Positions 565 to 63,869 of a stretch of DNA of 64,000 bases are shown here, piece by piece. A model generated the notes under the pieces. The model worked only from the letters and a program-made list of their open reading frames with translations, was not told the DNA's origin and searched no databases. The translations under genes and the position numbers were made by a program. The stretch comes from a virus, in IMG/VR virus record IMGVR_UViG_3300008111_000001, one strand, 5' to 3'. Each line of letters begins with the position of its first letter. The stretch's first letter is position 1.

Positions 565-717
565 TCAGCTGTCCGACGAGACGCCGGCGTTGAACCCATT
601 CTTGAACTGGTTCTTTGCGGAAGAAAGACCATTCTTGGTCTTTGTAGGAGCTGCCTTGGTAGCAGACACCAACTTGCCGGTCACTTTGCCAGTCTTTTGA
701 ATAATGTTCAGCTTCAT
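565..717 (-). CDS. small basic protein (50 aa, MKLNIIQKTGKVTGKLVS...)
   Basis: Read by hand; AAGAAGGT RBS-like sequence upstream; stem-loop (CCTGGAG...CTCCAGG) after the stop. Confidence 0.6.
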   Translation of the reverse strand: MKLNIIQKTGKVTGKLVSATKAAPTKTKNGLSSAKNQFKNGFNAGVSSDS

Positions 718-786
718 GCTGTTACCTTCTTTCTGTTTTGTGGTTAACTATCTCCAAAGATGGAGTCGATAAGATCAAAGAACCAT

Positions 787-802
787 CCGAACAATAGTTC
801 GA
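787..802. promoter_or_regulatory. LexA/SOS-box-like palindrome CCGAAC-AATA-GTTCGA
   Basis: One mismatch to the actinobacterial SOS box TCGAAC-N4-GTTCGA; intergenic, upstream of the 565-717 gene. Confidence 0.45.
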
Positions 803-805
803 ACA

Positions 806-1015
806 TCAGGCTTCTTTGCGGGTGTTACGTCGAGCCCAATCGCTTGACTCTTGAATCGCTTGCTTGAGAAGCTCTTCCTTTTCAGCCATAGCGAGGATCA
901 TGCTCTTCAAGTCGCCTTCTGCTTCATAGATCCTGATCGCAGCTTCGACTTGATGCAACATTTCCATTGTTTTGTAGTCACAGCGAGGCCGTGGCATTGT
1001 CATGTTTGCTTGCAT
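806..1015 (-). CDS. hypothetical helical protein (69 aa)
   Basis: ORF track; same orientation as its neighbours; AAGGAG upstream. Confidence 0.65.
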   Translation of the reverse strand: MQANMTMPRPRCDYKTMEMLHQVEAAIRIYEAEGDLKSMILAMAEKEELLKQAIQESSDWARRNTRKEA

Positions 1016-1517
1016 GCTTTCTCCTTTGTTTGTGCTGCAGGTCTTAGGACTCGCAGCTATTTTTTAGAATGTGAAACCATTGGCGCCAGTGGTCCACCCG
1101 CTGATATGTGAGCGAGTGGAACCACCGGGAGGCGCCATGCGAATAGCCCAGTTGGTAATGCGTACACTACCTTAGGGGGACTGGGTGCTCCCGTTGCATA
1201 CTGGCTGATCAGGCCGAACAATATATTCTTTGGACATCCGTATACAAGAGCCCTCTAGTTAAAATAGTCGATGTAGTCCTGAACTAGAACCATACTACAC
1301 CTGTTTCCTTATATCGCTTTATTGCGAGCAGATTCTTACTGCATCGGAGTTCTATATTATGACAGGATCGAATCATAATATATATCCCAAAGAGAGTTAT
1401 CCAGACTCTCAATCCATTTTTCCGATTTAGAATCGGCCAGGACACACACTGGTATGTGCGCGGGTACTCGTTACCTCCCCAGTGTTACCTGGGGAACGCA
1501 CTAGGCTTAAAACCTGT

Positions 1518-6812: not shown

Positions 6813-6814
6813 CC

Positions 6815-7307: not shown

Positions 7308-7364
7308 GGTCTATTGTCAAAAAAGAAAGTTTCCCCGAGGACCTTTCGATCCCCGGGGAAAACA
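7308..7364 (-). promoter_or_regulatory. early cassette copy F (variant core GACAATAGAC)
   Basis: CTATTGTC at 7311-7318; hairpin base nearly identical to copy E. Confidence 0.7.
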
Positions 7365-7403
7365 ATCCCATTGCTCATCTGGTGGACTCATCACCAGGAA
7401 TGA

Positions 7404-7670
7404 TCAGACCTCTTCCGAGCGGAAAAAGGCCTTGACTTCGGCCCAGTCGACCGTACGGGTTTTCGCCACGAAGGCAACTCCCGCTCCAATCGAAATGACC
7501 ACCAACATCGGCCAGTTGATGATGCTGATGCCGAAGCCCAGGATCATCCTGACCAGGACGAACGGCAGGGAGATGATCCCCACCGTTATGTCCGAAGTGG
7601 GCTCCAGAACGAGGAGCACACAAATGATGGAAGTCACCACGAGGGTGATCTTGTTGTTGATTCCGAACAT
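7404..7670 (-). CDS. small membrane protein (88 aa)
   Basis: Start at ATG 7670 (GGAGG RBS); 2-3 hydrophobic segments. Confidence 0.75.
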   Translation of the reverse strand: MFGINNKITLVVTSIICVLLVLEPTSDITVGIISLPFVLVRMILGFGISIINWPMLVVISIGAGVAFVAKTRTVDWAEVKAFFRSEEV

Positions 7671-7824
7671 GATTCCTCCAAGAAACATGTTTTTGTCCGG
7701 CTTAACGTACCGAACATGATTATTACGTTTCTCTTTTGTCAAGGTAAGATAACCTGTCAGGCATTTAGCTCCTGCTGCGTCACCCATGATTTATAGAGCG
7801 CTCAGGTTCTGCGCTAAGGATAAT

Positions 7825-7860
7825 GGTCTATCCTCAAAGAAAAAGGTTCCCGAAGGAACC
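7825..7860 (-). promoter_or_regulatory. early cassette copy G
   Basis: Core at 7828-7835; perfect GGTTCC-TTCG-GGAACC hairpin on the minus strand. Confidence 0.8.
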
Positions 7861-7931
7861 AATTCCTTTTAGTGATTATCCTGTTCCCAAGCGTCACTAC
7901 TGCTCGGCCACCCTATGGTGACAGTATGGAA

Positions 7932-8024
7932 TCAGTCCTTCTTCTTGAACAGGTCCACGAAGAACGTGACCTCTGCAATCAGAAGCATGCTGATGCCGAC
8001 GATGTACATCGGAATCTGCAACAT
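7932..8024 (-). CDS. 30-aa single-TM microprotein (MLQIPMYIVGISMLLIAEVTFFVDLFKKKD)
   Basis: Read by hand; perfect AGAAAGGAGGTG RBS; own cassette (copy H). Confidence 0.7.
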   Translation of the reverse strand: MLQIPMYIVGISMLLIAEVTFFVDLFKKKD

Positions 8025-8063
8025 TGCACACCTCCTTTCTTTGGTGTAGTGGGCATGGCTGGA

Positions 8064-8114
8064 TGCCTATCCCTAAAAAGAAGTTCCCCCAGGATCCGAA
8101 GACCCCAGGGGAAC
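8064..8114 (-). promoter_or_regulatory. early cassette copy H (core AGGGATAGGC)
   Basis: CTATCCCT at 8067-8074; hairpin nearly identical to copy D, C(UUCG)G loop. Confidence 0.75.
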
Positions 8115-8148
8115 AACTCTTTGTGCACCTGCCCTACCAGGTGCTTTG

Positions 8149-11070: not shown

Positions 11071-12084
11071 CTAGCCTTTGATTACGCTCACTATCTCTGG
11101 AGAGTTCTTTAATCTCTCAATAGCATTATCTCTGCCCTGGGCAAAGTTTTCTCCATTATAGTAAACCCATGCGCCCTTTTGGCTAAGAATTCCCTTATCA
11201 ATTCCTAAATCAAAAATACAACCAAACTGATCGATGCCCTGAGCGTAAACAATGTCAAACTCCACTATTTTCATTGGGGGAGCCATCTTGTTCTTGATAA
11301 TCTTAGCTTTTACTTTGATTCCCGAAGGATCGCCGTGTTTGTCTTTTAGATCTTCCTTTTTGCGGACATCAATGCGAACGGATGCTGCATACTTTAGTGC
11401 GAAGCCACCAGGAGTTGTTTCTGGATTGCCAAACATAACACCAATCTTATTTCTTAACTGATTGATGAAAATAATCAAAGTGTCATGCTGGGCAGCTAAA
11501 CCTGTTAGCTTGCGCATAGCTTTAGCCATCATTCGGGCCTGTAGCCCCATTTGCTGCTGTTCCATTTCGCCATCAAGCTCAGCCTTAGGAACTAGTGCAG
11601 CAACAGAGTCGATAACAATCAAACCTATGTCGCCAGTTCTCAACAATCTGTCAGCGATGTCGAAGCCTTGCTCGCCGTAGTCAGGCTGTGCAAGCAAAAG
11701 GTTGTCTAAATCGATTCCAACGGCTTGCATGTACACTGGGTCAAGCGCATGCTCAGCGTCGATGTAGGCGCACGTGAGGCCCATTTCCTGGGCTTTGGCG
11801 ACAGCTGTCAAAGCAAGTGTAGACTTGCCGGATGACTCGGGGCCAAATATTTCTACAACTCTACCACGTGGTAGACCACCGATGCCCAAAGCATGATCTA
11901 GTGTTAGCGCACCAGTTGGTATCGATGACCACGGCTTTACATTTGTGGAGCCGAGCTTAATAACTGCTCCAGAACCATACTGTTTTTGCAATTGTGCAAT
12001 TGCGAGCTCTAACGCTTTTGAGTCCTCTTTTAAGGCTTTCTTGCCTGACGCCACATTTTCAGCTGTTGCTGTTTCCTCTGTCAT
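11071..12084 (-). CDS. recA: recombinase RecA
   Basis: GPESSGKST Walker A, YIDAEHALDP, IVIDSVAALVPKAE, FINQLRNKIGVMFGNPETTPGG, QKGAWVYY. Confidence 0.97.
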   Translation of the reverse strand: MTEETATAENVASGKKALKEDSKALELAIAQLQKQYGSGAVIKLGSTNVKPWSSIPTGALTLDHALGIGGLPRGRVVEIFGPESSGKSTLALTAVAKAQEMGLTCAYIDAEHALDPVYMQAVGIDLDNLLLAQPDYGEQGFDIADRLLRTGDIGLIVIDSVAALVPKAELDGEMEQQQMGLQARMMAKAMRKLTGLAAQHDTLIIFINQLRNKIGVMFGNPETTPGGFALKYAASVRIDVRKKEDLKDKHGDPSGIKVKAKIIKNKMAPPMKIVEFDIVYAQGIDQFGCIFDLGIDKGILSQKGAWVYYNGENFAQGRDNAIERLKNSPEIVSVIKG

Positions 12085-47858: not shown

Positions 47859-48521
47859 ATGGCAGCAGAGGAATATACATCAGTTAATAAGTATCTTAAT
47901 ACTTATACCACATTCTCAGGTGCAGACATTGTAGCTACATTTGGTGGAGTAGAAATTGGTGCTCTTTCGGGCATCACGTTCTCAGTAACCAGAGAAAAGG
48001 CCCCAATCTATACCATGGGATCACCCAATCCACGCTCTTTCTCAAGAGGCAAAAGAGGTATCGCTGGTTCATTGATCTTCACAGTCTTTGACCGCCCCGC
48101 TTTGTACAAGATGTTGGATCAGAACTACTCACAAAATAGACCTATGGACTTCTACACCAGAAGCCACAATACCCTTCCTGGCGACAATGGCCACAGAAGA
48201 GGTATTGCTGATGTCAATGAGCAGAAGACCGGAGTAGTTAGAAAGGTTCCTTTCTATGCTGACCAAATTCCACCTTTTGACATTACTATAACATTTGCCA
48301 ACGAGTATGGTCAGGCCGCTGTCAGATCAATATTCGGTGTAGAGCTCCTCAATGAGGGTTCTGGCGCTTCTATGGATGACATCGTCATTGAAGAAACAAT
48401 GACATATGTTGCCCGTGAACTTGGCCCCATGTACACAATTAGAAATGACACTCTTGTTGATCCAACCAACTTGGTAGGAATACCACCCGAAGGATTGAAT
48501 ACAACAATCATCAGACCCTGA
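47859..48521 (+). CDS. tail tube protein
   Basis: TFSGADIVATF...TREKAPIYTMGS...RGKRGIAGSLIFTVF; strong codon bias; followed by a terminator. Confidence 0.8.
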   Translation: MAAEEYTSVNKYLNTYTTFSGADIVATFGGVEIGALSGITFSVTREKAPIYTMGSPNPRSFSRGKRGIAGSLIFTVFDRPALYKMLDQNYSQNRPMDFYTRSHNTLPGDNGHRRGIADVNEQKTGVVRKVPFYADQIPPFDITITFANEYGQAAVRSIFGVELLNEGSGASMDDIVIEETMTYVARELGPMYTIRNDTLVDPTNLVGIPPEGLNTTIIRP

Positions 48522-48540: not shown

Positions 48541-48584
48541 AATAAGTGCATGGGAGGTATCTTCCATGCACTTATTTATTTTTT
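48541..48584 (+). terminator. intrinsic terminator after the tube gene
   Basis: AATAAGTGCATGG...CCATGCACTTATT 13-bp stem followed by a T-run. Confidence 0.85.
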
Positions 48585-48594
48585 GGAGATTTTA

Positions 48595-49392
48595 ATGGCA
48601 GAAATTAAAACATTTACTTTTAGAAAAAGTAAACAAGAAGAACCAGTCCAGCAAAGTGGCAATGATCTTTATGATTGGGAAAAATATTTATCTACAATGT
48701 CATTTTCTGGCGCAGATGCTGTTGCCACAATTGTTTTACCGGTAATTGGTCCAGACGGAAATGTTGAGTCTCAAGGAGATTCTATAAATCTGGGAGAATT
48801 ACAGACAATTTCCTATTCTATTCACAGAGAAAACTCTCCAGTAAGAACCCTCGGCCACGTAAATGTTAGGGGTTTTATAAAGGGTGGCAGAACCATCGCC
48901 GGAAGTTTAATATTTACGGTGTTTAACGAATATGCTTTTTATCGCATAAAAGAATTTAAACAGTATTTAGCGAGAAAAACAGGATATTTTGCACCCTTAG
49001 CGGATATGTTACCACCATTTGATATTGTTATTACATTCTTTAATGAATATGGTATTGGTTCAAAAATGAAGATATTTGGAGTAACCATAGTTGACGAAGG
49101 TCAAACACTATCTATAGACGACCTAATTACTGAACAGACTTATACTTACATGGCAAGAGGTATACAGCCCTTAGTTAGAATGCCAGATGACAGTACGGTG
49201 CCTAGGGATACCTCTTACACCGATGAAATGAAAGCCAGAGATCAAATTAGTACAAATGTTTTTGGTGATCTGATTATTTCTGATCTGGCTGAACTTCAAA
49301 AGCAGGTTGAAGAAACCGAATACTATAATACAAATTACAATAGGCCAACAGTTCCAGCTCAGGTTATGCCTCCTGGAAGACTACATCTGTAG
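48595..49392 (+). CDS. tube-like protein, paralog 2 (baseplate-proximal)
   Basis: Start at ATG 48595; FSGAD...HRENSPVRTLG...GGRTIAGSLIFTVF...PPFDIVITF. Confidence 0.7.
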   Translation: MAEIKTFTFRKSKQEEPVQQSGNDLYDWEKYLSTMSFSGADAVATIVLPVIGPDGNVESQGDSINLGELQTISYSIHRENSPVRTLGHVNVRGFIKGGRTIAGSLIFTVFNEYAFYRIKEFKQYLARKTGYFAPLADMLPPFDIVITFFNEYGIGSKMKIFGVTIVDEGQTLSIDDLITEQTYTYMARGIQPLVRMPDDSTVPRDTSYTDEMKARDQISTNVFGDLIISDLAELQKQVEETEYYNTNYNRPTVPAQVMPPGRLHL

Positions 49393-50445: not shown

Positions 50446-51000
50446 ATGGATAATAAAAGAAAAGTTGTTTTACAGAATCTAGAAATAGAAGACACAAATA
50501 CCTCTCAGGAAATTAACTTTACGCTTTCAGGCTCCGATGATCCGAGCGCTCTAGATGTTGAGCTGGAAGATAATGAGGAGTTTTTGGCAGATATCGCTGA
50601 AGAAGAGCAAAAGCAATATACTGATATTGAAGAGGTTCCAGATGAAGAAGAGATCTGGAAAGATGGCCCTAAGGCTGGGGTCGTTAAGGAATGGAAAAAG
50701 CAGTACGGTGACATTTACGTCACCTCAATTACATATGATAAGCATGTTGTATGGCGTGTTCTTAACAGAGCTGAATATAAGCAGATTGTTAAGAAAATGG
50801 AGCAGCTGGTTCAGTCTGGACAGTTGTCGACAGCCGAAGCTAATATGTGGAATGAGGAAACAATAGCAGAACTCTGCATGCTGTATCCTAGATTTGACAA
50901 AGCTAATGCAGTTGGTTTTATGGCCGGTTTGCCATCGCTAATCTCGCAAGAGGTATTAGAGGCTTCTGGATTCGTGGCACTAGAGGTAAGACAGTTATAA
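50446..51000 (+). CDS. tail assembly chaperone 1
   Basis: Position before the tape measure; WKKQYGDIY...VWRVLNRAEY...EVLEASGF. Confidence 0.7.
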   Translation: MDNKRKVVLQNLEIEDTNTSQEINFTLSGSDDPSALDVELEDNEEFLADIAEEEQKQYTDIEEVPDEEEIWKDGPKAGVVKEWKKQYGDIYVTSITYDKHVVWRVLNRAEYKQIVKKMEQLVQSGQLSTAEANMWNEETIAELCMLYPRFDKANAVGFMAGLPSLISQEVLEASGFVALEVRQL

Positions 51001-51001
51001 A

Positions 51002-51631
51002 ATGTTAACAGCTGATATTATTTTTTCTTTAAAAAATAAATACGGCAACATTTATAGTGTTAATATAAAAAATCAAACTGTTGTTTTCAGAGAATTAACA
51101 TTCAAAGAATATGATAAAATTCTTTATCTAAAAACACTAGAAGATGTTGATTCTTCTGATATTGAAGATGTTATCCTTGAATTCGCCGTAATATACCCGG
51201 AGGGCTTCGACACTATGACGATACCTCCGGGTATTGTCGCTAATCTATCCTCCGAAATATTGGATATATCTGGTTTCTTCAGCGCTTCTGTTGCTAAGAG
51301 AATTCTTGAAGAAAAAAGATACGAAGCAACTGAAGTTAAAAATTTAATGAAAGCGTTTGTTTTGGCTACTATAACATCGTATGCTCCAGAAGATCTGGAG
51401 GATATGACTTTCTCTGAATTAGCAGAAAAAGTAGCTTTATCTGAAAAGATTATAGAGATAAAACAAAATGCTAATGGTATGGAATCTACTGATTTGAAGA
51501 TTCAATTAATAGATCCTGAAGAGGAAGAGCAAAAACAGAAAATTTCTGCAGCTAGACATAATCTTTCCAAGAAAGATGGCGAAGCTGCTTACGAAGATCC
51601 TATTGCTCAAAAGCTGTGGGGCATGAAATAA
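51002..51631 (+). CDS. tail assembly chaperone 2 (paralog of chaperone 1)
   Basis: LKNKYGNIY...VFRELTFKEY...EILDISGF. Confidence 0.7.
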   Translation: MLTADIIFSLKNKYGNIYSVNIKNQTVVFRELTFKEYDKILYLKTLEDVDSSDIEDVILEFAVIYPEGFDTMTIPPGIVANLSSEILDISGFFSASVAKRILEEKRYEATEVKNLMKAFVLATITSYAPEDLEDMTFSELAEKVALSEKIIEIKQNANGMESTDLKIQLIDPEEEEQKQKISAARHNLSKKDGEAAYEDPIAQKLWGMK

Positions 51632-51644: not shown

Positions 51645-54600
51645 TTGGTTAGAGATCCAGGACCTATTCACAATCTAGGTTATAGCGTAACGTCTAGAGA
51701 CGTTCCAACTATGATTGATGAAGAAAGGGGAGATGCTCCTAACTCATCATTTATTTCAAAAGCACTAAATGATCATCCTGTTTTAAGATTCGTTTCTACT
51801 GCAGCCACCACTATGGCTTCAGCTTTTGTTTTATCAAAGCTCACAAAACAAGGTGGATTAAAATTAGCCAAGACAGTTCAAGATAGAGCAGACAGTGGCG
51901 CCAGCAGGTTTGCCTCTAATATTGTTAACGTATTTCCTAAAATTAGAAAAGAGTTAGACGAACTTTCTGGCGTTAGCCGAATGATCGACGGCAATACTCC
52001 GGATCAAATCGATCCTTATTCAAGACTTGTTTTTGAGACAGCAGAAGGCAAGCTAACTACTGGCGTTATAAAGCACACAGATCGAGGCTATCACTGGACT
52101 GCCGGTGAGATCAGAAGAAGTGGCAAGGGGTTAGAATATGAGACAGCTGGAATATGGGGTTTCCGAGAGGAGTCTCAAGCTCGTTTAGTCTCTTTGGCCC
52201 GTAGAACGGCCTATGAGCTCCCTGCAGTGTATGTAGGTCAGAAAGCTATAGTCGATCCAATTTTTGGTGGCAGAGACGATTCTAAGGTTAAATGGTACAA
52301 CCCTGTAGATGTATTGACAGACTTTGTTAAAGATTCTACGATCAACTTAGTTACAATGATGATTCCAATGGAGGTTGGCGGAGCTGCAATAGGCAACGCA
52401 AGATCATCGCTGTCTAATTTTAGATATTCAATGTCTGACCTCGCCAGGTCCACTGGATCAAGTGACCTGAAGACAAACTCTTCAAGGATGTTTGTTAATT
52501 TGGCTGACGTTATGTCTGAGGTTGGTCACGACTTAGCTGACATAACTCAAAAGGCTGTAAAGATTTCCGCTCAAACCAGCGGAGCCATTAAGGCAGCTAC
52601 CACAGAGTATAGCCAGCAAAGAATTGATATCAATGCAATTCTTTCAAGAACAAGAAATTTAAGAGCAAAACAAATATATGAAGACTCTAAAGGTTCAAAG
52701 TTAAAGAGGGCTAGAAATGTTGCGACTCAATATGCATTTGGTAATGACGCCAACGGTAACTCTGGATATTTAGATTTATTTCCTGGACTCAGGGGTGTTG
52801 GCAGCGCTGTAAGGCAGGGTGTAAATCAGTTCCGTAAGGTTGGACAAGGTTACGATGTAGTAACTAGGGCGATTGACTTTGATGCAGCAGTACAGAAATA
52901 CGGTGCTGCAAACCCCGACGCTTACAGAGGGCAATTAAAGGGTATAATAAACAATCTTCAAGCTAACTCTACCAATAGAATGTCTATTATGGCCAGTAAA
53001 ATGGCCAGAACATTTGGTGGGCCAATCGGATCAGATAGCTTTTACTCGTCAGAGTTCTATAAAGGAATGGAACAAACAGAGTATAAAAAGGTTTTATACA
53101 AATCTTTAATGGAAAAAACTGCAACATCAGATAGGGATGATTTTGCGAAAACTATAGCAAAGTTTATTGACGATATTGACATCAACAAAACAGCTATGGA
53201 GCCATCAAGAAGAGTAACTATAGGTGAAACTAAAATACTACTTGATGGCGATGAACCATTTGATGAAATAATAAATAGGTTCAAGGGAACCTTATCTAAA
53301 AATAGGGCAGATGAATTTATTCAAAAGGTTGGAAGCTCTGATGTTTTACAGCAGTCCATTATTGATGCCAACAGGCTTTTTTCTGGAGCAGAGTTTCAGG
53401 CAGCATTAAAAGCAAAAGCTAACAAAGGTTATAAAGCATTCCAAGAGCAGGGAATGTTTAAAGTGGCTGGAACAGTTTTAAAAACTAAAAGAGCAGATTT
53501 TGAAGATTTCCTTGATTTAGATAATTTGTCTTACGCACAAAAAGATTTTCTAATTAAAAGATCCGCTCAAAGATTGGGGATGAAACTCAAAGCAGCTGAT
53601 GGCAGAGATCTAAGTAGAGGAGAATTAGGCGAGTCTTTAGGTAAAGTTGGTCTTGATGTAAAAAATCTTGGTCAACTAAGAAGTTTTCTTGTTAGGGAAA
53701 AACAAATAAGTTCTGGTGTTTTTGCTAGTGGGTTTAATCTGTTAGGATTAAGACGGGCAACTGTTGATGAGGCAACCCAACGCGGATTGTTTAGTAATTT
53801 AGATGAAGAGACTCAAAGTTTTATTAATCAAATGTCTTCCAGCATGGTTAGGGCTGATCCAACAAAAACAGCTTCTAGCGTTTCTGTTCTTCCAGATATT
53901 TTTATTACAAAGACTGGTGGTATTCTAGATGTTTCTGGAATAAGGCAAACTGCAAGAAATGTAGGAAACTTTCTAGCCAATGATTTAAGAATACCTGTTC
54001 TTGGTTTTAATCCGGCAGACTTATTCGGTAAGCAGTCTTTTAATGAAATGTCTGGAAGGGCTCCCTTTCAGTTTATTCAGGGTAAAGTTTCACAGCCTTT
54101 CCTTCAAGGCGCAGACAAATCTGCTGACTTCTACTTATTCTATAGCGGTGGAAAAACAAAAGGTAAAGTTATGGCGTTTAATTATAACGTCATGGCTCAA
54201 CAGTATACTTCTAGAACCTTGGATGGAACCTTTAGGCCGCTAGCTAAAAACAGCTCACAAATGTTGACTCGTGCAGCTAGAAATGCCGCTGCAGAAAGAG
54301 ACGCCGAATCCCTTAATTCCTTAAATTATCAAGAAGGCACATTCAGAAGTAGATTTTTTTCTGGTCTATCAAGATTCGGTGTAACACCAGAAAGAGAGTT
54401 AAAATTTAGAGAAGCTTTTGATATTAACTATGATCAACCAAACTCTATATTTGGTTTTATGTCTAGATTTTCCAGGAGAAATATTGATCCAGAAAATCCT
54501 AGATTTTTTGCACAAGTAATATCTGGGAGAGATATTAATACAAAAGCGGGAACGCTGAGAAAAAACATTGTTAAAGACGCAGACGGCAATGTCCAAAGAG

Positions 54601-57600
54601 TTAATGTAATTAACGCTGATACTGGCGAAGAAATGGTTTCAGAAAAAGCTTTGTTGGAAGCTTTTGAAGGGTTTAGAAGAAGGGCATTTGGAGCTGGTTT
54701 TTCTCGACGTGCAATGAGAGCGATAGAGGATGCTGATCCGTCATTAGCTACGTATTCTGGCGTAAAAGTAAGTCAGCTTCAGAATGTTCAGGAAAAAATA
54801 GATTTTGCAAATGTGTTGATCAGAGGTGTCGACAGAGATGCAAATATTTTAAGAAGACAGGGCATAGACGCTGCTACATTGTTCCAAAGTAGAGAGAGAA
54901 TTAGGAAGGTATTAGAGGAGTCAGACTTGTTATCTGGTTCTCAGATACGGTCAGTTAGCCCAACGATTCTTACAAGAGAAGACCAATTAACAGACGAACT
55001 ATTTAAGTTTTTAATTCAAAGAAACGAATTAGTTTCAAATAGCACTAGGCAAACATTCGGTCAAAATTTTATTAAGATAAACCAAGCTCTTGCAAATATA
55101 GCCAAGGAAATGCCTGCCGGTGAGTTGGCTGAAGCGCAAGCGGCAGCATTTGGAGCATTAACCAACCTAAACTCAGTAAGGGCAAACAGATCTTTTCTAA
55201 AAGAAATTGAAGTTCAAAGAAGAGCTCTTGCAAATGTTATAGAGTCTTTAGAAGGTTCTCCGGAATTAGTTCAGCCATTTTTATCTGGTTCAATTGAAAG
55301 AGTTGGAGAAATAGGTAAACTTGGTTTAGCTAAAAAATTATTATATCCATCATTAAGCACGGCTTCTTTTAAAATATCGCATTTAGCAACAGATCCACTT
55401 GGTTCAGCTACTGGTCCTGGCGCTGACGTTTTGTTGGTTCCCACTTTTGGTAGTGTATTTGCCAGGAATCCTGTTGGAGCATTAAAGAGTGTTGCAGGAA
55501 TAAATACATACAGTAGTCCAGAAAGCTATTCAAACCTATCTGCTGCAGTATCTCATGGTGTTGAAAGACTTAATAAATATTTTGGCACAGTTGGATTACA
55601 GTTAGATGTAAATCAATATGGTTCTCCGTTAGATCTTTTTGCAAGGGGCATGGTAGGCAAAAGAGTTCTGCCACTCTATGCTGGCGGATTAGCTTTCATG
55701 ACCGCTGATAGAACAATTGGTGGGATGGTCAATGAAAAAGATGCAAGAGGAGAAAGGGTTTATTCTCCATTTTTTGTTGGGGCAGCGACAAAAGCTGTAG
55801 GACAAGTTCATGCATTAGGTGCTGGGGTTATGCCTGGTGGAATGAGCTATGAAGAGAAAAAGGAACAGCTTTTTGAGGGAGAGGTGCCGATAAGGCAGGG
55901 TCGTTTCTGGCCATTGGGTAATACTCCATTTATGGGCGGAAAGATAATGTATTACAGGCCAAGTATTTATCGCAAGATTGAAGCTGGCTCAATGTTTACT
56001 TCTGATACATATGGTTCCCCTATAGAAAGAGCCTTATTCTATACGGACATATCTCCACTACGTCCATTGGATCCATATCGCTTTGAAAGAAAGCATTATG
56101 AAGATAGGCCATATCCTATAAGTGGAGAATATTTTTCTGGTCCGTTTGGTCCACTAACTCCCGCACTAAACGCCACAGTAGGCAGGATATTAAAGCCTCA
56201 AATAAAAATGCACGAGCAAGAAGTTTCGCAAGCTTTGTCTAATTATGCTCCAGCAGGACAATCTGGAGCTTATGATGCAAGCGCTTACTTGCGACAAGTT
56301 TCCATGCCCATGTTGCCCGGACAGGCAGCTCAACAGCAATTTGGGCAAGCTTCCATCGGTGGATTAATACAGGGCGGAACCCCAATTATGTCTATGGGGA
56401 TTTCTTCTGGTGGACCTGGCCCAGGAATACAAGCATCAGCAAACGCAGAGTTGGCAGGCAGGGCGGGAGCATTAAACACCGCCAAGTATTCCACCATGCA
56501 GAGCATAGGACAGATCAATGGTCAGTATACCCAAATGGCATATGGTCCCCCAAAAACTCCAGGTATGATGCCTCCAAGAATAGTTGGTGCGGGATCACCG
56601 ATTTCTGTTGGCGATCCACAGGTGCAACTTCAAGATTTTGGATATAGAACTCAAGAAGCCTTAGGTATCTATGGTTTCGCTGGTGCCGCATTCAGAGAAT
56701 CTTTTGGATATGGTCAAGGAGATTTTGAACCACAAAGAGCAGTTTTGCAATCTGCCTCCAAGGCATATGGTATGAGTAGGCAGTTCTGGGATTATAATCT
56801 TGGCGGACTTGGTGACGTTCCAATGTTAGGTGGAAGAAATTTTGGTTCAATAGAATTTTCTGAAATAACTAGAAGATTTATACCAAAAGAAAGAACTGGT
56901 GTTGATTATCTGAATCCAATACAAAACACTATGGGCAAACAATATCCATTTTTGCCAGGGCCAGAATATTATTTAGATTTCACTAGAGGAGATCCTTTTA
57001 CCAAGGTTCAAGAAGGTGAACTCCGTTTGCCTGGAGTCGCTTACGAAAGATTGAATCAACTGCATTCAGATGAAACTGGAAGATATGGTTTATTAGATCA
57101 ATTTAAAATACTTGGAGATGTTGCCCCTTACTCTAAGCAGTATAGGTATTTAGATAAAAAAATTAATAGTTATTTAGATGATCCATCAGAAAAGCTGCAG
57201 GCTGACAGTATTAGAGAAAGAGTAGCTTCTATACAGCAGAGGGAAACTTTCTCTGAATATAGTCATGTCGGCAAAACTGCTCAAGAAGCTGGCACTAACC
57301 CTCTTGTTCACAATCTATCTAGAGCGGCAGAATATATTGCCCACAGAGATACTTTTATAAATAGAAAGTTTATCAATAAACAAACGGCAGTGGAGGACTG
57401 GGAAAGAAACAATGTTTACGGAGCTACATTCCCAGAGTGGCAGAGACCATTCGAAAGCTTCATAGAACCAATGATTAACAAAGCTGCTGACAGAAATCCA
57501 TTAGCAGCATCTGCAAGCTTGGCTGCTGCAGGACTTTTTGCGGGTAGAACGCAACCAGGAAAACTGGTCATGTCTGGCCTAGGTGCCATTACCGGATTAG

Positions 57601-58340
57601 CAGCTTCTACAGGGGCTAATATTCAAGAGGCAATAACTGGAGAAAGATTTATTCCAACGGAAAGAAAAAAGGAATTAGCTCTTGAAGAGTATTCTGATAT
57701 TTTAAGCTACGTAAAAAATACAAGATTAGCTAACATGGCGGAATCATCGGGGGACGCAGCAGCAGCTTTTCAGTTTAGATCAGCAGCAAAAAGGACAATG
57801 TATGGTGCGCCAATAGAAGATATTGGCACAGGCAAATATGGAAGCGATGTAGAGTCTCTTTCTTTGGCTATCCCTAAAAGAAAAAGGGAGCATTTTAAAG
57901 CAATGATAAATGCTCCAGAAGAAGATAGGGGAAGAATACTTTCTACGGCTGGAAGATTGGAAAGAAGAATATACGAGGCAGCGTGGGGTATGCCAGTTGA
58001 AAAACGTCCAGAATTAACAGATTATTTTAGTAGGCATGAATTACCCGATGAGGGATGGGAAGGTTGGCATCCAAATACAAATATGGATTCTGTTAAAATT
58101 AAAATAGGACAGCACATGGGTCTTGAAATGTCTCAAATGGGTTACTATCCTCAACAGATAAGAGAAGCTAATCTAGCCAATCCCAGCTATCCTCGGTTTG
58201 ATTATTCTTCAGATTCTAATGCAGACGTATCATATAGATTACGTTCTTTAATGAATGGCATGGGTGTTACTGGTTCAGTTACTCCGGTCATGAATCCGTT
58301 TGGTGGTCAGCAAATTGACATAAGTGCAGGGGTTAGGTAG
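51645..58340 (+). CDS. tape-measure-like giant protein (2231 aa)
   Basis: TTG start; follows the chaperones; largely helical with hydrophobic G/A segments and aromatic C-terminal motifs. Confidence 0.7.
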   Translation: MVRDPGPIHNLGYSVTSRDVPTMIDEERGDAPNSSFISKALNDHPVLRFVSTAATTMASAFVLSKLTKQGGLKLAKTVQDRADSGASRFASNIVNVFPKIRKELDELSGVSRMIDGNTPDQIDPYSRLVFETAEGKLTTGVIKHTDRGYHWTAGEIRRSGKGLEYETAGIWGFREESQARLVSLARRTAYELPAVYVGQKAIVDPIFGGRDDSKVKWYNPVDVLTDFVKDSTINLVTMMIPMEVGGAAIGNARSSLSNFRYSMSDLARSTGSSDLKTNSSRMFVNLADVMSEVGHDLADITQKAVKISAQTSGAIKAATTEYSQQRIDINAILSRTRNLRAKQIYEDSKGSKLKRARNVATQYAFGNDANGNSGYLDLFPGLRGVGSAVRQGVNQFRKVGQGYDVVTRAIDFDAAVQKYGAANPDAYRGQLKGIINNLQANSTNRMSIMASKMARTFGGPIGSDSFYSSEFYKGMEQTEYKKVLYKSLMEKTATSDRDDFAKTIAKFIDDIDINKTAMEPSRRVTIGETKILLDGDEPFDEIINRFKGTLSKNRADEFIQKVGSSDVLQQSIIDANRLFSGAEFQAALKAKANKGYKAFQEQGMFKVAGTVLKTKRADFEDFLDLDNLSYAQKDFLIKRSAQRLGMKLKAADGRDLSRGELGESLGKVGLDVKNLGQLRSFLVREKQISSGVFASGFNLLGLRRATVDEATQRGLFSNLDEETQSFINQMSSSMVRADPTKTASSVSVLPDIFITKTGGILDVSGIRQTARNVGNFLANDLRIPVLGFNPADLFGKQSFNEMSGRAPFQFIQGKVSQPFLQGADKSADFYLFYSGGKTKGKVMAFNYNVMAQQYTSRTLDGTFRPLAKNSSQMLTRAARNAAAERDAESLNSLNYQEGTFRSRFFSGLSRFGVTPERELKFREAFDINYDQPNSIFGFMSRFSRRNIDPENPRFFAQVISGRDINTKAGTLRKNIVKDADGNVQRVNVINADTGEEMVSEKALLEAFEGFRRRAFGAGFSRRAMRAIEDADPSLATYSGVKVSQLQNVQEKIDFANVLIRGVDRDANILRRQGIDAATLFQSRERIRKVLEESDLLSGSQIRSVSPTILTREDQLTDELFKFLIQRNELVSNSTRQTFGQNFIKINQALANIAKEMPAGELAEAQAAAFGALTNLNSVRANRSFLKEIEVQRRALANVIESLEGSPELVQPFLSGSIERVGEIGKLGLAKKLLYPSLSTASFKISHLATDPLGSATGPGADVLLVPTFGSVFARNPVGALKSVAGINTYSSPESYSNLSAAVSHGVERLNKYFGTVGLQLDVNQYGSPLDLFARGMVGKRVLPLYAGGLAFMTADRTIGGMVNEKDARGERVYSPFFVGAATKAVGQVHALGAGVMPGGMSYEEKKEQLFEGEVPIRQGRFWPLGNTPFMGGKIMYYRPSIYRKIEAGSMFTSDTYGSPIERALFYTDISPLRPLDPYRFERKHYEDRPYPISGEYFSGPFGPLTPALNATVGRILKPQIKMHEQEVSQALSNYAPAGQSGAYDASAYLRQVSMPMLPGQAAQQQFGQASIGGLIQGGTPIMSMGISSGGPGPGIQASANAELAGRAGALNTAKYSTMQSIGQINGQYTQMAYGPPKTPGMMPPRIVGAGSPISVGDPQVQLQDFGYRTQEALGIYGFAGAAFRESFGYGQGDFEPQRAVLQSASKAYGMSRQFWDYNLGGLGDVPMLGGRNFGSIEFSEITRRFIPKERTGVDYLNPIQNTMGKQYPFLPGPEYYLDFTRGDPFTKVQEGELRLPGVAYERLNQLHSDETGRYGLLDQFKILGDVAPYSKQYRYLDKKINSYLDDPSEKLQADSIRERVASIQQRETFSEYSHVGKTAQEAGTNPLVHNLSRAAEYIAHRDTFINRKFINKQTAVEDWERNNVYGATFPEWQRPFESFIEPMINKAADRNPLAASASLAAAGLFAGRTQPGKLVMSGLGAITGLAASTGANIQEAITGERFIPTERKKELALEEYSDILSYVKNTRLANMAESSGDAAAAFQFRSAAKRTMYGAPIEDIGTGKYGSDVESLSLAIPKRKREHFKAMINAPEEDRGRILSTAGRLERRIYEAAWGMPVEKRPELTDYFSRHELPDEGWEGWHPNTNMDSVKIKIGQHMGLEMSQMGYYPQQIREANLANPSYPRFDYSSDSNADVSYRLRSLMNGMGVTGSVTPVMNPFGGQQIDISAGVR

Positions 58341-58342: not shown

Positions 58343-61300
58343 ATGTTAGGAAAAATAGCTAGCTTCCTAGAAAGACGAAAGCAAGAGATTCCTGAATATG
58401 AATCTTTTACTGACTATATGGCTGCGTACCTGTCTCCTTTGTCCCCAGAAAAGCAGGTTAGGGCAGCTAGAAGAATAATGACTAAAATACCTAGTGGTCG
58501 ACTAATGGAACCATTTGTTGATCCAGCTGATAATATTTTAAAATATAGAGCATCTTACTTTGATCCAGAAGAGCAAGGCAGAAAGGTTTTCAATAGCGTA
58601 GACGACGCCATAGAGTATTTCTCTGCCCTGCATCTTACTGAAGTTTACAGACTATCAAAAGATGAAGTTCCAGTGGTTTATAGGGGTTATGGTCAGGTTA
58701 TAAGGGAGATAGAAAAGGTCGCTAGGGAAAAGAAACTTTTTGGAATAGAAGATCTTGAAATGAACATTGCCATCCATAAGGGTGGGCTTGATACTCAACA
58801 GGGCGCTGAGGCACTAAAAGCATTTTTTGATGCACAAAAATCAAAAGGCTACGGTTTACTTTTACCTACGGACGATGGTGGTATTGCATTAAATTTAGTT
58901 GCTACAATCGCTGGAAAAAAACAGACACTAGGATTAGATCAAACCTTAGAACTAATGCAGGCAGCAAATGTTTCGATCATAGATCCAGACGTATTGGAAG
59001 AAGCTATGAAATCTGGAAATAAAAAACTGTCTTCTTTAATTCAAAAGTTAGATAAAAGATTACGTGGCGTTTTGTCGCCAAGAGAAGTGTCCGTTTCTGG
59101 TGATGCACTAAGATCAATATTAGATGACGTTGGTAAGCCTGGTCTATCATTTGCTGATTCGATTCTTAACACAGATCCAGTGTTTGAGGCATTGGGGTTA
59201 GCTTTAGATGTTGATACGTTGAAAAATGTTTCAAAAATGAAAAACTCGGAAAAAGCCGCAGACGCAGCACAAAGAATAAGAGAGTCTTGGATGATTGGTG
59301 GCCAAGATAGATCTAAAGATTTTTATAAAATAATTTTAGATGAAGTAATTCAAGGGCAAAGCGGACCAAATAAAAAACTATTAGGTAAAGAAAGTCAAAT
59401 ATATTCAGATGTCAGTAGCTATTTGAAAATTGCTATGCAAGACGCCATAGATAGTGGGGAGGTGGATATTACTGTCGGAAAATATGGTACGGACGTTTTA
59501 AAAAGTAAGTTGGGATTATTAAAAGAGAGTTTAGAAAAAAGCGCAGCTGGTAACGAAAGTGCACTAGGAGAAATAGGTCAAAAATTTAGCATCATTGACG
59601 TCCTGCTTGATGAAATAGAAAAGGGATCAGACGGTTCTATGTTGATAAACGATCCGTACACTAGGGCTATTCAAAAAGGTTATCAGTCTGAAATAGATGA
59701 ATTGAACAAAAAATACGCACAGTCCACTAGTAGGCTAGAGAAAGAAAATATTCTTTTAAAGAGAATGGAAGTTGAAAGGTCAATGCGTCAGTTAGATGAG
59801 TCTAAAGGTTTGTCTCAAATAACTGTTCGAGGAAACGTTGTTTTTGATGCAGGGGATCAAACACGTCCTGCCAGAATATTTTCTTTAAAAGGCGCAGCAA
59901 TGAACGTTGAGTTTACTGGAAGATATACAAAATATTCCATCATTGCGCCAAAGGCGACTACCAAAAGAGAAACTAGAATATCTGGATTAACAGACATTTT
60001 AAACCTTTCTGGAACAGGTGAATCTAAGGGCGCAGTCTATGCAGACCCCATGCTTGACGCATTCCATTCAGCAGTATTTGGCTCACCTCAATCGCAACAG
60101 TTAGGTAGAGAGTATTCTGCGGCGTTGCAAAAAGAGTTAAATGAAATGTTAAAAGCAAACAGGATTGATGAAGGCGGAAAATTTTATCAATCTTTGTTAA
60201 AAGCTACTCAATCACAGTCTGAAGACATATTGGAGACCCAGCAGTTCTCACAAATGATGCACAGGACTATGGCAGAGGAAATACTTGAAATACATAGAAG
60301 CGGCGTTCCGTTAGATCAACATCCTAGGGCTATGAATAGAATTTTGGATTTTGCTCAAAAAGAGTTCTTTAAGATCAAAAAGGGAATTCCTCTACCAGTA
60401 ATGCCTGATGTTTACAGATTTGCTTTAAATGCTGAGTCCACTCAGGTTGGTATATCCAGTGGGAGAATGTTCTTAGATATGGCCGATCAAAATATTGCAA
60501 TGGATGAAGGATTTAGTCTTAGCACCACTCGTGTCAGATTCTCTAATCACAACCTATTAATGAGCGAAAGGGACGTTATTAGATTCCACCATGCTCTTGG
60601 TGGATTCGACCTTGACGACAAAGGCTTGCCGGTTCTTGGAACATATATGTCTAATGGTAAAAGACGTTTGGCTATGGCAATGGCTCGCCAGCCTACGGGT
60701 GCAGGTGAAATGATTGGCTTTGTTCGCTTTAATGATATTGAAAGTTATCAAGAGCTATTTGGGCATAACGCGGACTTCATGAAAACGTTAGGTCAAATGA
60801 TTTCAGATGAAGAGGAGAAGTTAGCGTATCTACAAGGTTCGGGTAGCTCTCCCACTTTGCAAAGATTAAATATATTAAAGCAGAATTTAGAAGGCAAATT
60901 TACATCTGAAGAAATGACACGAATTGATCAGTCTGGCTTATTGGATCAACTTGAGGATACGATAATAGATGTTAGAGATAGATTATATGGCGGAAAGGCT
61001 AGAACTTTTAATAGAGCATATTTTGAATCATTAGGTGTATTAAAGCAGGGCGCAAGTGCGGTTGATTTTTTTGCTGGGTCTAGATTGGTGGATTTTGCTG
61101 GAGTTGATCCAGGTTTAGCTTCTCTCGGTTTTCAAAAATTAAAAACTGAGGTCATGACAATGAATCTTGAAGATGATGTCTTTAAAGCTTTGGAACATCT
61201 TATGACAGATCAGCAAAAAACTCAACTAGGTGCAATTAGAAATCAAATACAAACCTTAAAAGCTCCAGCTTTTTCGGGGTTGCCAATACCAGGTTCCATT

Positions 61301-63412
61301 TACGATGATTCGACACAGCTAGCAGTACTGGAGCAAGCTCAAAAAGATTTAGATAAAGCTTCAAAAGATTTTTATAAAACGTTAAATAGTTTTGGATTAG
61401 ATAAAGACAAAACGGCCATTGCTATGAACAAATACTATCTTGAAACAATGGAAAAAGCTTCAACGGAAAACGCTAACAATCTTGGTAAGCATGTTAACAG
61501 GGCTACTGTAATTGCAGATGGTTTAAATCAATTCGAGAAAGCCTTTGGGTCTGATCAAGCAATCAACGATGCCCTTAGGCAAAAGGGCCTATTAATAGGC
61601 TTGCCATCGTCAGAAACCGCAGTGGACATGACTCAAACATTTACTTCCGGAAGATTAAAGTTAAAAATGGACGCTGAAGCCGCTGCCGATCTTAGATACG
61701 GTATGGATATTTTTAGAAGAATGTATGGAAATAACTTTGATTTGGAAGAGCACGGCGCAGAAATTGTTAGCAAGTATGGAGAAATGTTTGGTTACCTGCA
61801 GCACAGGGGGGACCAGCAATTTGTTCTGGATAAAGCTTTAATTAATTTCGGAAAGCTAAACCAAGATGACCTCAGATCTTTTGCTGAATCCTACATAAAA
61901 GGCGCTGAAGCAAGAATGGCTGAAGGAATAAAAACTGATGAAGATTTGACTGCGCTAAAGAATCTGTTTTCTAAGGGGGATGCTCCTAAAAAATCTCAAG
62001 TGATAAACGCACTAACAGATATAGGAGTAATTGGTAGAGGTAATCTTTCTAATACAATCGAAGTTGCCCAGCAAGCCGAAGATAGCATTAATGCAGCAAG
62101 AAAAAGATTTGGCGATAACATGAAGGAGTTAAGAGATACATTAACTTCTGGTATGGGTAAAAATGTCACTGAAGCACAGTTATCCGCAAAAGCTATTTTG
62201 GACGCAAATCAGGATATTTTTGATGAATTGATGCAAGCTAATGCCGCCTATAGAGAAACGCAAAAAATTCTTAAAGAAGGAATACAGGATGGTCAATTTA
62301 TCGATTCTGCTAGAAGAGCAGAATTGACTGTGGGCTCTGATCGAGCTAGGATAAGAGCGGAAATATTAAGAACTCAATTAGGTGATAGTTTCTTGAGCGG
62401 AATTAATGAGGTTAGATCACAGAGAGCTTTAACTGGATTTAATCTAATAAATGCACTTCAGTTGGAGGCTTTAGATCGTGGAATGAGCTCATATGTTTTT
62501 GAACAGCTAACAGATTTAACAGAGAATTCAAATGAAGAGTTTGCTAACTTTTTTGCTAGAGTTAATGCAGCTAAAAGAAATAAAGCAGCTTATACAAAAG
62601 CTACTTCAAATATGCAAGTTAGAAATATTGTTGACAATTTCTTTAATGCTACCTCGTCTATGAGAGATGTGCTTCTTAGGGATATTTCTGGAGGAGGAAT
62701 TTTAGATCTTTCTCAGTATGGTGATGTTTCAGGGATGTTTGCAGACTTGGGTGTTGATATGCAACAGTTGGGCCAGGCTGTTGGAAAAGGGGTTGAAGAC
62801 ACTACGGATGAAAATATAAAAATTATATCCAATGCGATAAGAGCTAGAGCTTTATATGAAAGAGATATTTTGGATCCAGCAGTAGATGACTTTTTGAACG
62901 GTCAGATATCTGCAGATAAAGTGGTTGGCAAGAAAGACAGACCTAAGGGTATAGTTGGAGATGTTTTAAGGGAGCTTGATGAGCAGTCTCCATCAAATGT
63001 AAATCCATCTAAATTTAAACGTTTAGATATGGATTATTTGACAGAACAATTTTCTAAGCCTTCCGTTCAAAAAACGGCTATCGCAGCTGGCCTTTTGATA
63101 GCAGGAAGCTTTCTTTACCAAAATAAAAAAGATAAGACAACAGAAGACGCAGCAGGGCCACCACTGCTTCCTGGCGGATCAGCATATGAGCAAGGATACC
63201 CTAGTCCCAATGTTTCTGTTCCACAAATTGGTGGTGGCGGATATTCTTCCGGAATGAGCTATAAGGTTTCCTTATATGGTTCGAGGCAAGATGTTGAAAG
63301 GTTCCAACAAGCAGCTTCTGGACTTACTAATGGATCGATTAACAGTACTATGTATAATAGGATCCCCAGTGTGACGTCTGATCCATATCAGCAGCTCGCT
63401 AGCTCATTTTAA
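58343..63412 (+). CDS. giant tail-module protein with candidate two-barrel RNA polymerase core and C-terminal TM
   Basis: SDGSMLIN (D430), QITVRG (R496), LKG (K516), IIAPKATTK (K537/K541), VYRFAL (R692), LGGFDLDD (D756/D758/D759), ARQP (R782). The gene is certain; the function is inferred. Confidence 0.6.
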   Translation: MLGKIASFLERRKQEIPEYESFTDYMAAYLSPLSPEKQVRAARRIMTKIPSGRLMEPFVDPADNILKYRASYFDPEEQGRKVFNSVDDAIEYFSALHLTEVYRLSKDEVPVVYRGYGQVIREIEKVAREKKLFGIEDLEMNIAIHKGGLDTQQGAEALKAFFDAQKSKGYGLLLPTDDGGIALNLVATIAGKKQTLGLDQTLELMQAANVSIIDPDVLEEAMKSGNKKLSSLIQKLDKRLRGVLSPREVSVSGDALRSILDDVGKPGLSFADSILNTDPVFEALGLALDVDTLKNVSKMKNSEKAADAAQRIRESWMIGGQDRSKDFYKIILDEVIQGQSGPNKKLLGKESQIYSDVSSYLKIAMQDAIDSGEVDITVGKYGTDVLKSKLGLLKESLEKSAAGNESALGEIGQKFSIIDVLLDEIEKGSDGSMLINDPYTRAIQKGYQSEIDELNKKYAQSTSRLEKENILLKRMEVERSMRQLDESKGLSQITVRGNVVFDAGDQTRPARIFSLKGAAMNVEFTGRYTKYSIIAPKATTKRETRISGLTDILNLSGTGESKGAVYADPMLDAFHSAVFGSPQSQQLGREYSAALQKELNEMLKANRIDEGGKFYQSLLKATQSQSEDILETQQFSQMMHRTMAEEILEIHRSGVPLDQHPRAMNRILDFAQKEFFKIKKGIPLPVMPDVYRFALNAESTQVGISSGRMFLDMADQNIAMDEGFSLSTTRVRFSNHNLLMSERDVIRFHHALGGFDLDDKGLPVLGTYMSNGKRRLAMAMARQPTGAGEMIGFVRFNDIESYQELFGHNADFMKTLGQMISDEEEKLAYLQGSGSSPTLQRLNILKQNLEGKFTSEEMTRIDQSGLLDQLEDTIIDVRDRLYGGKARTFNRAYFESLGVLKQGASAVDFFAGSRLVDFAGVDPGLASLGFQKLKTEVMTMNLEDDVFKALEHLMTDQQKTQLGAIRNQIQTLKAPAFSGLPIPGSIYDDSTQLAVLEQAQKDLDKASKDFYKTLNSFGLDKDKTAIAMNKYYLETMEKASTENANNLGKHVNRATVIADGLNQFEKAFGSDQAINDALRQKGLLIGLPSSETAVDMTQTFTSGRLKLKMDAEAAADLRYGMDIFRRMYGNNFDLEEHGAEIVSKYGEMFGYLQHRGDQQFVLDKALINFGKLNQDDLRSFAESYIKGAEARMAEGIKTDEDLTALKNLFSKGDAPKKSQVINALTDIGVIGRGNLSNTIEVAQQAEDSINAARKRFGDNMKELRDTLTSGMGKNVTEAQLSAKAILDANQDIFDELMQANAAYRETQKILKEGIQDGQFIDSARRAELTVGSDRARIRAEILRTQLGDSFLSGINEVRSQRALTGFNLINALQLEALDRGMSSYVFEQLTDLTENSNEEFANFFARVNAAKRNKAAYTKATSNMQVRNIVDNFFNATSSMRDVLLRDISGGGILDLSQYGDVSGMFADLGVDMQQLGQAVGKGVEDTTDENIKIISNAIRARALYERDILDPAVDDFLNGQISADKVVGKKDRPKGIVGDVLRELDEQSPSNVNPSKFKRLDMDYLTEQFSKPSVQKTAIAAGLLIAGSFLYQNKKDKTTEDAAGPPLLPGGSAYEQGYPSPNVSVPQIGGGGYSSGMSYKVSLYGSRQDVERFQQAASGLTNGSINSTMYNRIPSVTSDPYQQLASSF

Positions 63413-63422: not shown

Positions 63423-63869
63423 ATGATATTAAGTGTTAAAGATCAAAACAAAACTTTAGCCTCCGCTGCCAAACAGCCAAAAGATACATCCCATAGAAGC
63501 ATAACCGCAAATAAGTATGCAGCGAAGATAGCTTCTAGTAAAAGTCCTTCTAAAAATGTTGTATCTGAGTCACGTCAAAAAATCCAAGCATCGGGACAAT
63601 CAGATAAGGTCCGAGGTTCTTTTGAGGGCTTAGAAAATTCTTCGCCTGCTCATATTCTCATGGATGGGAGTGGCTATAGTGGCAAAAGACATCAGAAGGC
63701 CAGATATTCTAAGAATATTAATACTAAATTAGGTGGTAATTTTAACTTTAATTCTTTTACAAAGGAAACAAAAAGTAGTATAATAGATAACTATAGTTCT
63801 TCCACTATGAAAGATTCTTCTAGTGAAAGATTGTCTAAGATTATTAAGAATAACATGGCATTTGCCTAA
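63423..63869 (+). CDS. basic Ser/Lys-rich hypothetical protein
   Basis: ORF track; directly follows 58343-63412. Confidence 0.7.
   Translation: MILSVKDQNKTLASAAKQPKDTSHRSITANKYAAKIASSKSPSKNVVSESRQKIQASGQSDKVRGSFEGLENSSPAHILMDGSGYSGKRHQKARYSKNINTKLGGNFNFNSFTKETKSSIIDNYSSSTMKDSSSERLSKIIKNNMAFA

Follow-up and report, generated by a model that had tools for sequence, protein, structure and literature searches.

Here we report an analysis of P0001, a plus-strand gene at 58343..63412 in a 64,000-nucleotide stretch of viral DNA (IMG/VR record IMGVR_UViG_3300008111_000001; the whole stretch is referred to below as the window), which probably encodes a relative of the two-barrel polymerases within a large tail protein. 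The gene was delimited as an open reading frame (ORF) with an ATG start from the ORF list and its translation, and its product has 1689 aa. An earlier note on this DNA had proposed a virion-packaged single-chain RNA polymerase (RNAP) at this place. In our analysis, homology of fold to the two-barrel polymerases is well favored, and the further proposal that P0001 is an active two-barrel polymerase, delivered with the tail and transcribing the early genes, stands evenly balanced. Residues ~420-1190 would constitute a single-chain two-barrel nucleotide polymerase of the QDE-1/YonO/crAss-gp66 clade. The phage itself is an uncultured myovirus of ~180-216 kb and a distant relative of Bacillus phage 0305phi8-36.

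All motifs quoted in the earlier note were recovered by a script at the expected residues of the P0001 translation, namely SDGSMLIN (aa 429-436, nt 59627-59650), QITVRG (aa 492-497), LKGAA (aa 515-519), IIAPKATTK (aa 533-541), VMPDVYRFAL (aa 686-695), HALGGFDLDDKG (aa 750-761, nt 60590-60625), and ARQPT (aa 781-785), which places D430, R496, K516, K537, K541, R692, D756, D758, D759, and R782 as proposed. We found 48 homologues of P0001 in a collection of 5.8 billion proteins and 79 further loci in IMG/VR, and a profile search of 1.84 billion representatives extended the family to 226 clusters at 50% identity, on contigs of up to 216 kb. Conservation was assessed mainly in 58 distinct sequences, comprising the window and the IMG/VR loci, that are ~22-90% identical in the core. 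The residues R496, K541, R692, L752, G753, F755, D756, L757, D758, D759, K760, R782, Q783, P784, and E789 are identical in all 58, while D430, G431, and K516 are kept in 56 and G754 in 54. The GGxDxDD signature is thus preserved among homologues, with G753 and the FDLDDK stretch (755-760) without exception. Of the two candidates for the second lysine, K541 is invariant and K537 is not conserved. K541, D756/D758/D759, R782, P784, and E789 still have unchanged equivalents in a set of the 32 most divergent representatives, at ~17% identity. As far as can be judged from sequences, this is the conservation pattern of an active site, beyond chance. The possibility that the domain is a degenerate relic was rejected, because the FDLDDK loop is absolutely invariant.

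The conserved residues fall into two regions joined by a helical connector. The first, beta-like barrel region (aa ~425-570, 59615..60052, plus strand), defined from conservation, strands predicted by AlphaFold2 (AF2), and the alignment to QDE-1, contains D430-G431, Q492..R496, K516-G517, and K541, with predicted strands at aa 433-436, 493-502, and 511-522 and a long helical hairpin inserted at aa 437-486. The connector (aa ~582-674, 60086..60364, plus strand) was delimited by AF2 helices. The second, beta-prime-like barrel region (aa ~676-800, 60368..60742, plus strand), defined from conservation, AF2 secondary structure, and alignments to QDE-1 and RDR2, comprises in order the R692 strand, an FRVSxH strand, a short helix, the loop G753-K760, a hairpin, R782-Q-P784...E789, and a last strand. 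It is followed by a mostly helical region (60743..61912, plus strand), recognized by AF2 helices and by invariant residues; alignments of 29 and 44 sequences reveal there a second invariant set formed by G1048, N1052, R1053, D1095, D1163, D1176, and G1187.

The predicted fold lends support to the two-barrel assignment. In two independent AF2 models, which lie within aa 400-1200, the only large-coverage structural matches were the two-barrel RNA polymerases QDE-1 and maize RDR2. This match is the only recurring one that covers more than 230 residues, and it returned in both models and in three library modes with a constant register in which the model start corresponds to QDE-1 700; a single isolated row of 206 residues had a root-mean-square deviation of 23.6 A. 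In the structural alignment, model residues 20..769 correspond to QDE-1 700..1151, and the alignment extends to QDE-1 residue ~1150, beyond the trigger loop, over the helical region at 60743..61912. Alignments made with VIA end at model 353-378, equivalent to QDE-1 1019-1031 or RDR2 842, which leaves no more than a few residues between FDLDD and the Asp triads. Calculated from range offsets, model-2 residue 5 on QDE-1 700 puts D709 two residues off D430, and model 354 on QDE-1 1024 puts the triad 1-4 residues off D756-D759. In QDE-1, D709 of barrel 1 is a second-metal ligand, Q736, R738, K743, and K767 touch the product and the phosphates of the nucleoside triphosphate (NTP), the R-x-P at 962-964 serves as the gate, the triad consists of D1007, D1009, and D1011, and the trigger loop spans residues 1102-1136 (PMC9508822). 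The P0001 series D430...Q492-x3-R496...K516...(25 aa)...K541 parallels D709...Q736-x-R738...K743...(24 aa)...K767 of QDE-1. The acidic and basic set expected of a beta-like barrel is therefore present and colinear with QDE-1, with R496 and K541 in every sequence of the main set and D430 and K516 in nearly all. Secondary structure assigned by DSSP gives an order of strand, strand, short helix, loop, and strand around the second-barrel loop, which is compatible with a double-psi topology.

These findings bear directly on the possibility that the two-barrel resemblance is coincidental and that the domain is a family-specific tail or ejection domain, either structural or with an unrelated acidic site of the DxD type, AF2 and the aligners having arrived at QDE-1 by chance. 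We consider this unlikely, since the recurring register puts invariant Asp, Arg, and Lys residues onto the catalytic residues of QDE-1, no other match of this extent recurred across the models and library modes, and the GG...DK flanks of the loop match those of the YonO-like and gp66 loops. Among viral structures in BFVD, the matches were three uncharacterized Caudovirales proteins (E 1e-7 to 1e-8), probably members of the same family, and weak ones to crAss giant proteins (prob 0.28).

A number of results weigh against a polymerase assignment, and the first of them concern the candidate metal-binding loop GGFDLDDK itself (aa 753-760, 60599..60622, plus strand), identified by conservation and by its likeness to known loops. 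As described earlier, it reads G-G-F-D-L-D-D-K, with three invariant Asp spaced DxDD in place of DxDGD, and the strict DxDxD triad is not present in the loop of the beta-prime-like barrel of P0001. In addition, the canonical R-x-P is absent upstream of the loop, where R692-F-A is invariant and has no Pro, and this R692 lies 64 residues ahead of the loop with a variable insert between them; in two-barrel enzymes the canonical R-x-P gate precedes the triad by ~35-45 residues. The placement of RQP after the loop was likewise borne out, as an invariant R-Q-P (58/58) occurs 24 residues downstream within the conserved RQPT...E element (aa 782-789, 60686..60709, plus strand). The RDR2 allele G833E is a loss-of-function allele, and loss of the loop Gly is accordingly not obviously neutral. 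One low-confidence register of hhalign also matches RQP and its strand with the pre-catalytic strand in gp66, and D798/E800 with DFDID, although neither D798 nor E800 is invariant in the P0001 family.

The remaining adverse points come from searches for a known relative, and from the fact that the family is known solely from sequences of uncultured phages. Scans of P0001 against Pfam, PHROG, and NCBIfam and Pfam scans of 80 family members gave no match, PF05183 was silent on P0001 even at E 10 and PF00623 likewise had no match, and phmmer and profile searches of PDB sequences returned only helical-bundle noise. We compared the family profile, built from 48 and later from 206 sequences, by hhalign with a 120-sequence alignment of the crAss gp66 core (P 0.027-0.038) and a 43-sequence YonO-like alignment (P 0.09-0.22), and neither similarity was significant; against P23-45 gp96 the same comparison gave nothing. 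Nor did hhalign detect anything in 0305phi8-36 ORF146 and ORF099, ME3 gp036, and Moorella CDS0027, or tblastn of P0001 in 50,697 phage records. In the ESM Atlas, a feature search with P0001 found nothing and a shape search only rows with template-modelling (TM) scores of 0.22-0.34, mostly helicases of the UvrD/HelD type, which were probably driven by the long helical hairpin. The relationship to two-barrel polymerases suggested by the predicted fold is detected by no sequence-profile method. Families of the two-barrel superfamily often have no detectable similarity among themselves (PMC10770324). Because Pfam, PHROGs, and NCBIfam miss the family, genes of the P0001 type are at present all annotated as hypothetical.

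The best local hhalign segments, all of them non-significant, are colinear with the expected residue mapping. The best one for the gp66 family (P 0.03) pairs aa 638-673, in the helical connector, with gp66 1187-1222, and low-confidence pairings join D430-G431 to D229-G230 and R496 to R293 of the YonO-like family. In the latter family, represented by 43 sequences around 0305phi8-36 ORF099, the invariant residues are D229-G230, R293, K298-G299, K349, R529-x-P531, E537, and G570-G571-x-D573-x-D575-G-D577, with a Lys next in ORF099. Set beside GGFDLDDK, the loops of ORF099 (GGADTDGDK), gp66 (TGSDFDIDK), and RDR2 (830-DLDGD-834) are similar enough that the P0001 loop reads as a canonical GGxDxDGDK minus its glycine. 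Alternatively, if the Phe is taken as the marker, xFDxDD may replace DFDxDx. In beta-prime (rpoC), NADFDGD has the same helix-loop-strand context as FDLDD, and we keep FDLDD as the catalytic loop because its context of strand, strand, short helix, loop, and strand matches that of the beta-prime motif. The sub-profile RQP..E aligns best, and non-significantly, with FRSPLIHKSE, which is the canonical gate in the YonO-like family. The displaced gate may mean that the barrel is permuted or that an extra hairpin bears a second gate, and both readings stand as alternatives.

A separate question is whether a genuine two-barrel fold in P0001 has some other activity, being primase-like, DNA-synthesizing, a nucleotidyl-transferase on host nucleic acids, or another metal-dependent enzyme acting at the entry site; PolD is a DNA-synthesizing example among the two-barrel enzymes. 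Such an activity would fit a DxDD loop unlike the DxDxD of every characterized two-barrel RNAP, the displacement of R-x-P, and the absence of a Gly that is essential in RDR2, and the tape-measure-slot proteins of relatives do carry other enzymes, such as the RNase_T domain in MTATph1. Against it, the metal-, NTP-, and product-binding residues of QDE-1 all have invariant colinear counterparts in P0001, and the genomes of the relatives leave the transcription role vacant. Four relatives (85-100% complete, 180-216 kb) had no match to PF00623, PF00940, PF05183, or sigma-70 region 2 in searches where the controls matched, nor any match to the 0305phi8-36 RNAP ORF099, so that no other recognizable RNAP or sigma factor fills this role. 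Bacillus phage 0305phi8-36 has in ORF099 a separate YonO-like RNAP (PF05183 match, E 1e-20). A second paralogue of P0001 was sought in the four genomes as well, and each has only one copy of the core. On balance we hold a different activity to be a minor possibility.

With P0001 taken as a polymerase, barrel 1 would supply D430 as the second-metal ligand and R496, K516, and K541 as contacts to the product and NTP phosphates, and barrel 2 the metal loop G-G-F-D756-L-D758-D759-K, in which the glycine would be missing and the third Asp would sit one residue earlier. The NTP gate would be formed by R692, by the downstream R782-Q-P...E789, or by both. The protein would be assembled within the tail, expelled upon sheath contraction, and anchored through its C-terminal hydrophobic helix, and would then transcribe the first phage genes without the host polymerase, as P23-45 gp96 and crAss gp66 do. 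For P0001 we infer catalysis, template, packaging, and timing alike.

Comparison with the known two-barrel polymerases shows which of these features are shared. QDE-1 and RDR2 are eukaryotic cellular RNA-dependent RNA polymerases (PF05183) with a single-chain two-barrel organization and no detectable sequence similarity to P0001. They have a DxDGD loop where P0001 has DLDD-K, and their R-x-P lies ~45 residues before the loop rather than 24 residues past it; P0001 also differs in the ~50-residue helical hairpin within barrel 1 and in the embedding of the domain in a 1689-aa tail protein. The YonO-like proteins (SPbeta YonO and ORF099) are phage single-chain two-barrel enzymes, as proposed for P0001, and have in common with it the invariant DG...R..KG...K series, a GGxDxD(G)DK loop, and a spacer of ~60 residues after DG. 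ORF099 is nevertheless a free-standing protein of 1218 aa, encoded at the genome end and recognized by PF05183, whereas P0001 belongs to the tail module, lacks the loop Gly, and escapes recognition. The crAss phi14:2 gp66 (PDB 6VR4) resembles P0001 as a giant virion-type protein with a non-canonical loop, DFDIDK, in which Lys follows; unlike P0001, it comes from a podovirus, lies outside the tape-measure slot, and keeps DxDxD and an upstream YRIPNQG, and the hhalign probability between the P0001 and gp66 families is 1.4-1.8%. In P23-45 gp96, a two-barrel polymerase module occupies the N-terminal side of a protein in the tape-measure position and is presumably threaded through the tail, as proposed here for P0001. 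The gp96 protein is a precedent for a tape-measure-fused virion RNAP (PMC10770324), and the location of P0001 in the tape-measure slot makes it the closest functional precedent. It differs in that gp96 is a 5002-aa protein of a Thermus siphovirus with a DxDxD loop, while P0001 belongs to a contractile-tailed phage with a second giant conserved tail protein, P0050.

The window covers the structural region of a myovirus, with the large terminase at 21615, the capsid protein at 37035, and the sheath at 46568. Within it, a block formed by a tube paralogue, g49405, two chaperone-like genes, P0050, P0001, and a 148-aa gene is syntenic in 79 of 79 loci. The two small genes (50446..51631, plus strand) were placed by synteny at the position of the tail chaperonins ORF143/ORF144 of 0305phi8-36 and match PHROG 29362 and 29368, of unknown function, and the 148-aa gene (63423..63869, plus strand) always directly follows P0001 in the loci. 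P0050 (2231 aa, 51645..58340, plus strand) was identified by tblastn and synteny as a homologue of 0305phi8-36 ORF145, with 31-35% identity to the ORF145 family over its C-terminal ~900 residues (aa ~1300-2210). According to its annotation in the record of 0305phi8-36, ORF145 is a structural component of the virion, where mass spectrometry (MS) identified it. Conservation of P0050, with 304 invariant residues in 29 sequences, far exceeds that of P0001; Gly, Pro, and aromatic residues abound in the C-terminal half of P0050, which is not a typical tape measure. We also considered P0050 as the real polymerase and rejected it, as it lacks a DxDxD-type signature, its conserved part is rich in Gly, Pro, and aromatic residues, and its homologue is a virion structural protein.

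The location of P0001 next to the tape measure, as described before, did not withstand this comparison: the upstream gene is the ORF145 homologue, and P0001 itself occupies the slot of 0305phi8-36 ORF146, recorded as a "hypothetical tape measure protein" and as found in virions by MS. P0001 lies between the chaperones and the hub, the position that marks a tape measure, with P0050 interposed as in 0305phi8-36, and in 0305phi8-36, Moorella phage MTATph1, and Acinetobacter phage ME3 the gene after the ORF145 counterpart likewise encodes a large pre-hub protein. Tape measures are long helical proteins whose length scales with that of the tail and which have hydrophobic segments near the C-terminus; in P0001, AF2 predicts a mostly helical stretch at aa 800-1200, and a hydrophobic helix lies at aa 1578-1592. 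No recognized tape measure family matched it in Pfam, PHROG, or NCBIfam, or ORF146 in hhalign. The hydrophobic helix, TAIAAGLLIAGSFLY (63074..63118, plus strand), was read from the sequence, and the Gly/Pro-rich C-terminal tail (63140..63412, plus strand) was defined by the alignment consensus. This tail is second only to the catalytic motifs in conservation, as aa ~1570-1689 retain 54-59% identity in loci where the remaining protein is ~25-29% identical.

Judged from its positional counterpart in 0305phi8-36, a virion protein, P0001 may be packaged in the virion. It could instead be an active two-barrel RNAP that is encoded in the tail operon and acts at middle or late times without entering the particle. 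The gene would indeed be expressed late alongside the tail genes, and these phages have no other RNAP for their middle and late genes. We nevertheless find this very improbable, given the strictly conserved position between the chaperones and the hub, the C-terminal hydrophobic helix and highly conserved C-terminus, both expected of an inner-tail protein, and the presence in virions of the positional analogue in 0305phi8-36.

Several observations were made on proteins of the same module in the window and in relatives. The products of two plus-strand genes of the window, 47859-48521 and 48550-49392, match PHROG 9206 "major head protein" (E 1e-41 to 1e-51), and their counterparts ORF140/ORF141 in 0305phi8-36 are recorded as the tail tube and a tube paralogue; it looks as if an erroneous "head protein" label had been propagated. 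In Moorella phage MTATph1, the protein in the tape-measure slot (L094:12735-16664) has an exonuclease domain of the RNase_T type (E 5e-5). The corresponding protein gp036 of the cultured Acinetobacter phage vB_AbaM_ME3 (L095:12415-17226) contains, as noticed by eye at aa ~1174-1227, SREPAQG followed after 42 aa by MMGGDHDQDQAAV, a pair that resembles YRIPNQG...GSDFDIDK of gp66 and has its beta-prime counterpart in NRAPTLH...NADFDGDQMAV. No Pfam or PDB match and no relatives of ME3 gp036 were found. Its motif pair suggests that this gene slot may also hold a second polymerase module, of canonical type.

Two types of irregular reading frame occur in the P0001 family. In a sub-clade (L031/L055, L037, L039, and L040; ~11187-11320), the homologue is encoded in two overlapping frames (+1) that break just past the second barrel, at aa ~820-830, and homology crosses the junction without a start codon in the four distinct sequences. 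This overlap may represent programmed frameshifting, with one short and one long product. The homologue at L057:9536-14372, from a 216-kb genome rated as complete, is split into ORFs of 660 and 938 aa, and the break separates the R692 strand from the FRVxxH strand. The two ORFs occupy different frames, the ribosome-binding site is poor, and the split may stem from faulty assembly or from a recent disruption. As a single case with these features, it was rejected as a sign of separate subunits.

We also observed repeated intergenic elements in the window. On the minus strand at 4545-8134, eight intergenic cassettes each consist of a GC-rich hairpin with a T-run followed by the near-invariant TTTGAGGATAGAC, in six exact copies and two with two mismatches, and the ribosome-binding site and ATG of a small leftward gene lie ~30-40 nt beyond each. 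At up to two mismatches, the window has 12 matches against 3.5 expected, with the eight of the cluster sharing a single strand. In the closest complete relative, 11 copies lie within 11 kb on one strand, against none in the control, and the distant relatives have almost no copies. From their sequence, we regard the cassettes as candidate terminator/promoter units, specific to the phage, that would serve early genes. A second element, TTACTATW, occurs at 17 sites in the window (e.g., 12453, 12472, 34568, 38191, 46515) against 7.4 expected, a number reached in no shuffle, and many of the sites lie just upstream of structural genes.

In its most far-reaching form, the proposal for P0001 is that of a new active-site architecture, with xFDxDD for DFDxDx, a post-loop R-x-P...E gate, and a partly permuted beta-prime-like barrel, in the sole RNAP of a widespread group of aquatic myophages with genomes of ~200 kb; this RNAP would be fused to the protein of the tape-measure slot, anchored in the membrane by its C-terminus, and could couple genome entry to transcription from the TTTGAGGATAGAC cassettes. 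Taken as a whole, this is doubtful. If P0001 is a polymerase delivered with the tail, the range of tape-measure-linked virion RNAPs would extend from the one Thermus siphovirus known so far to contractile-tailed phages, where they would be common in view of the 226 clusters. Searches for two-barrel polymerases by the DxDxD signature would then overlook a whole family, and the invariant GGFDLDDK would reveal what the metal site truly requires. Such an enzyme would also explain how transcription could start in large phages that have no recognizable RNA polymerase or sigma factor.

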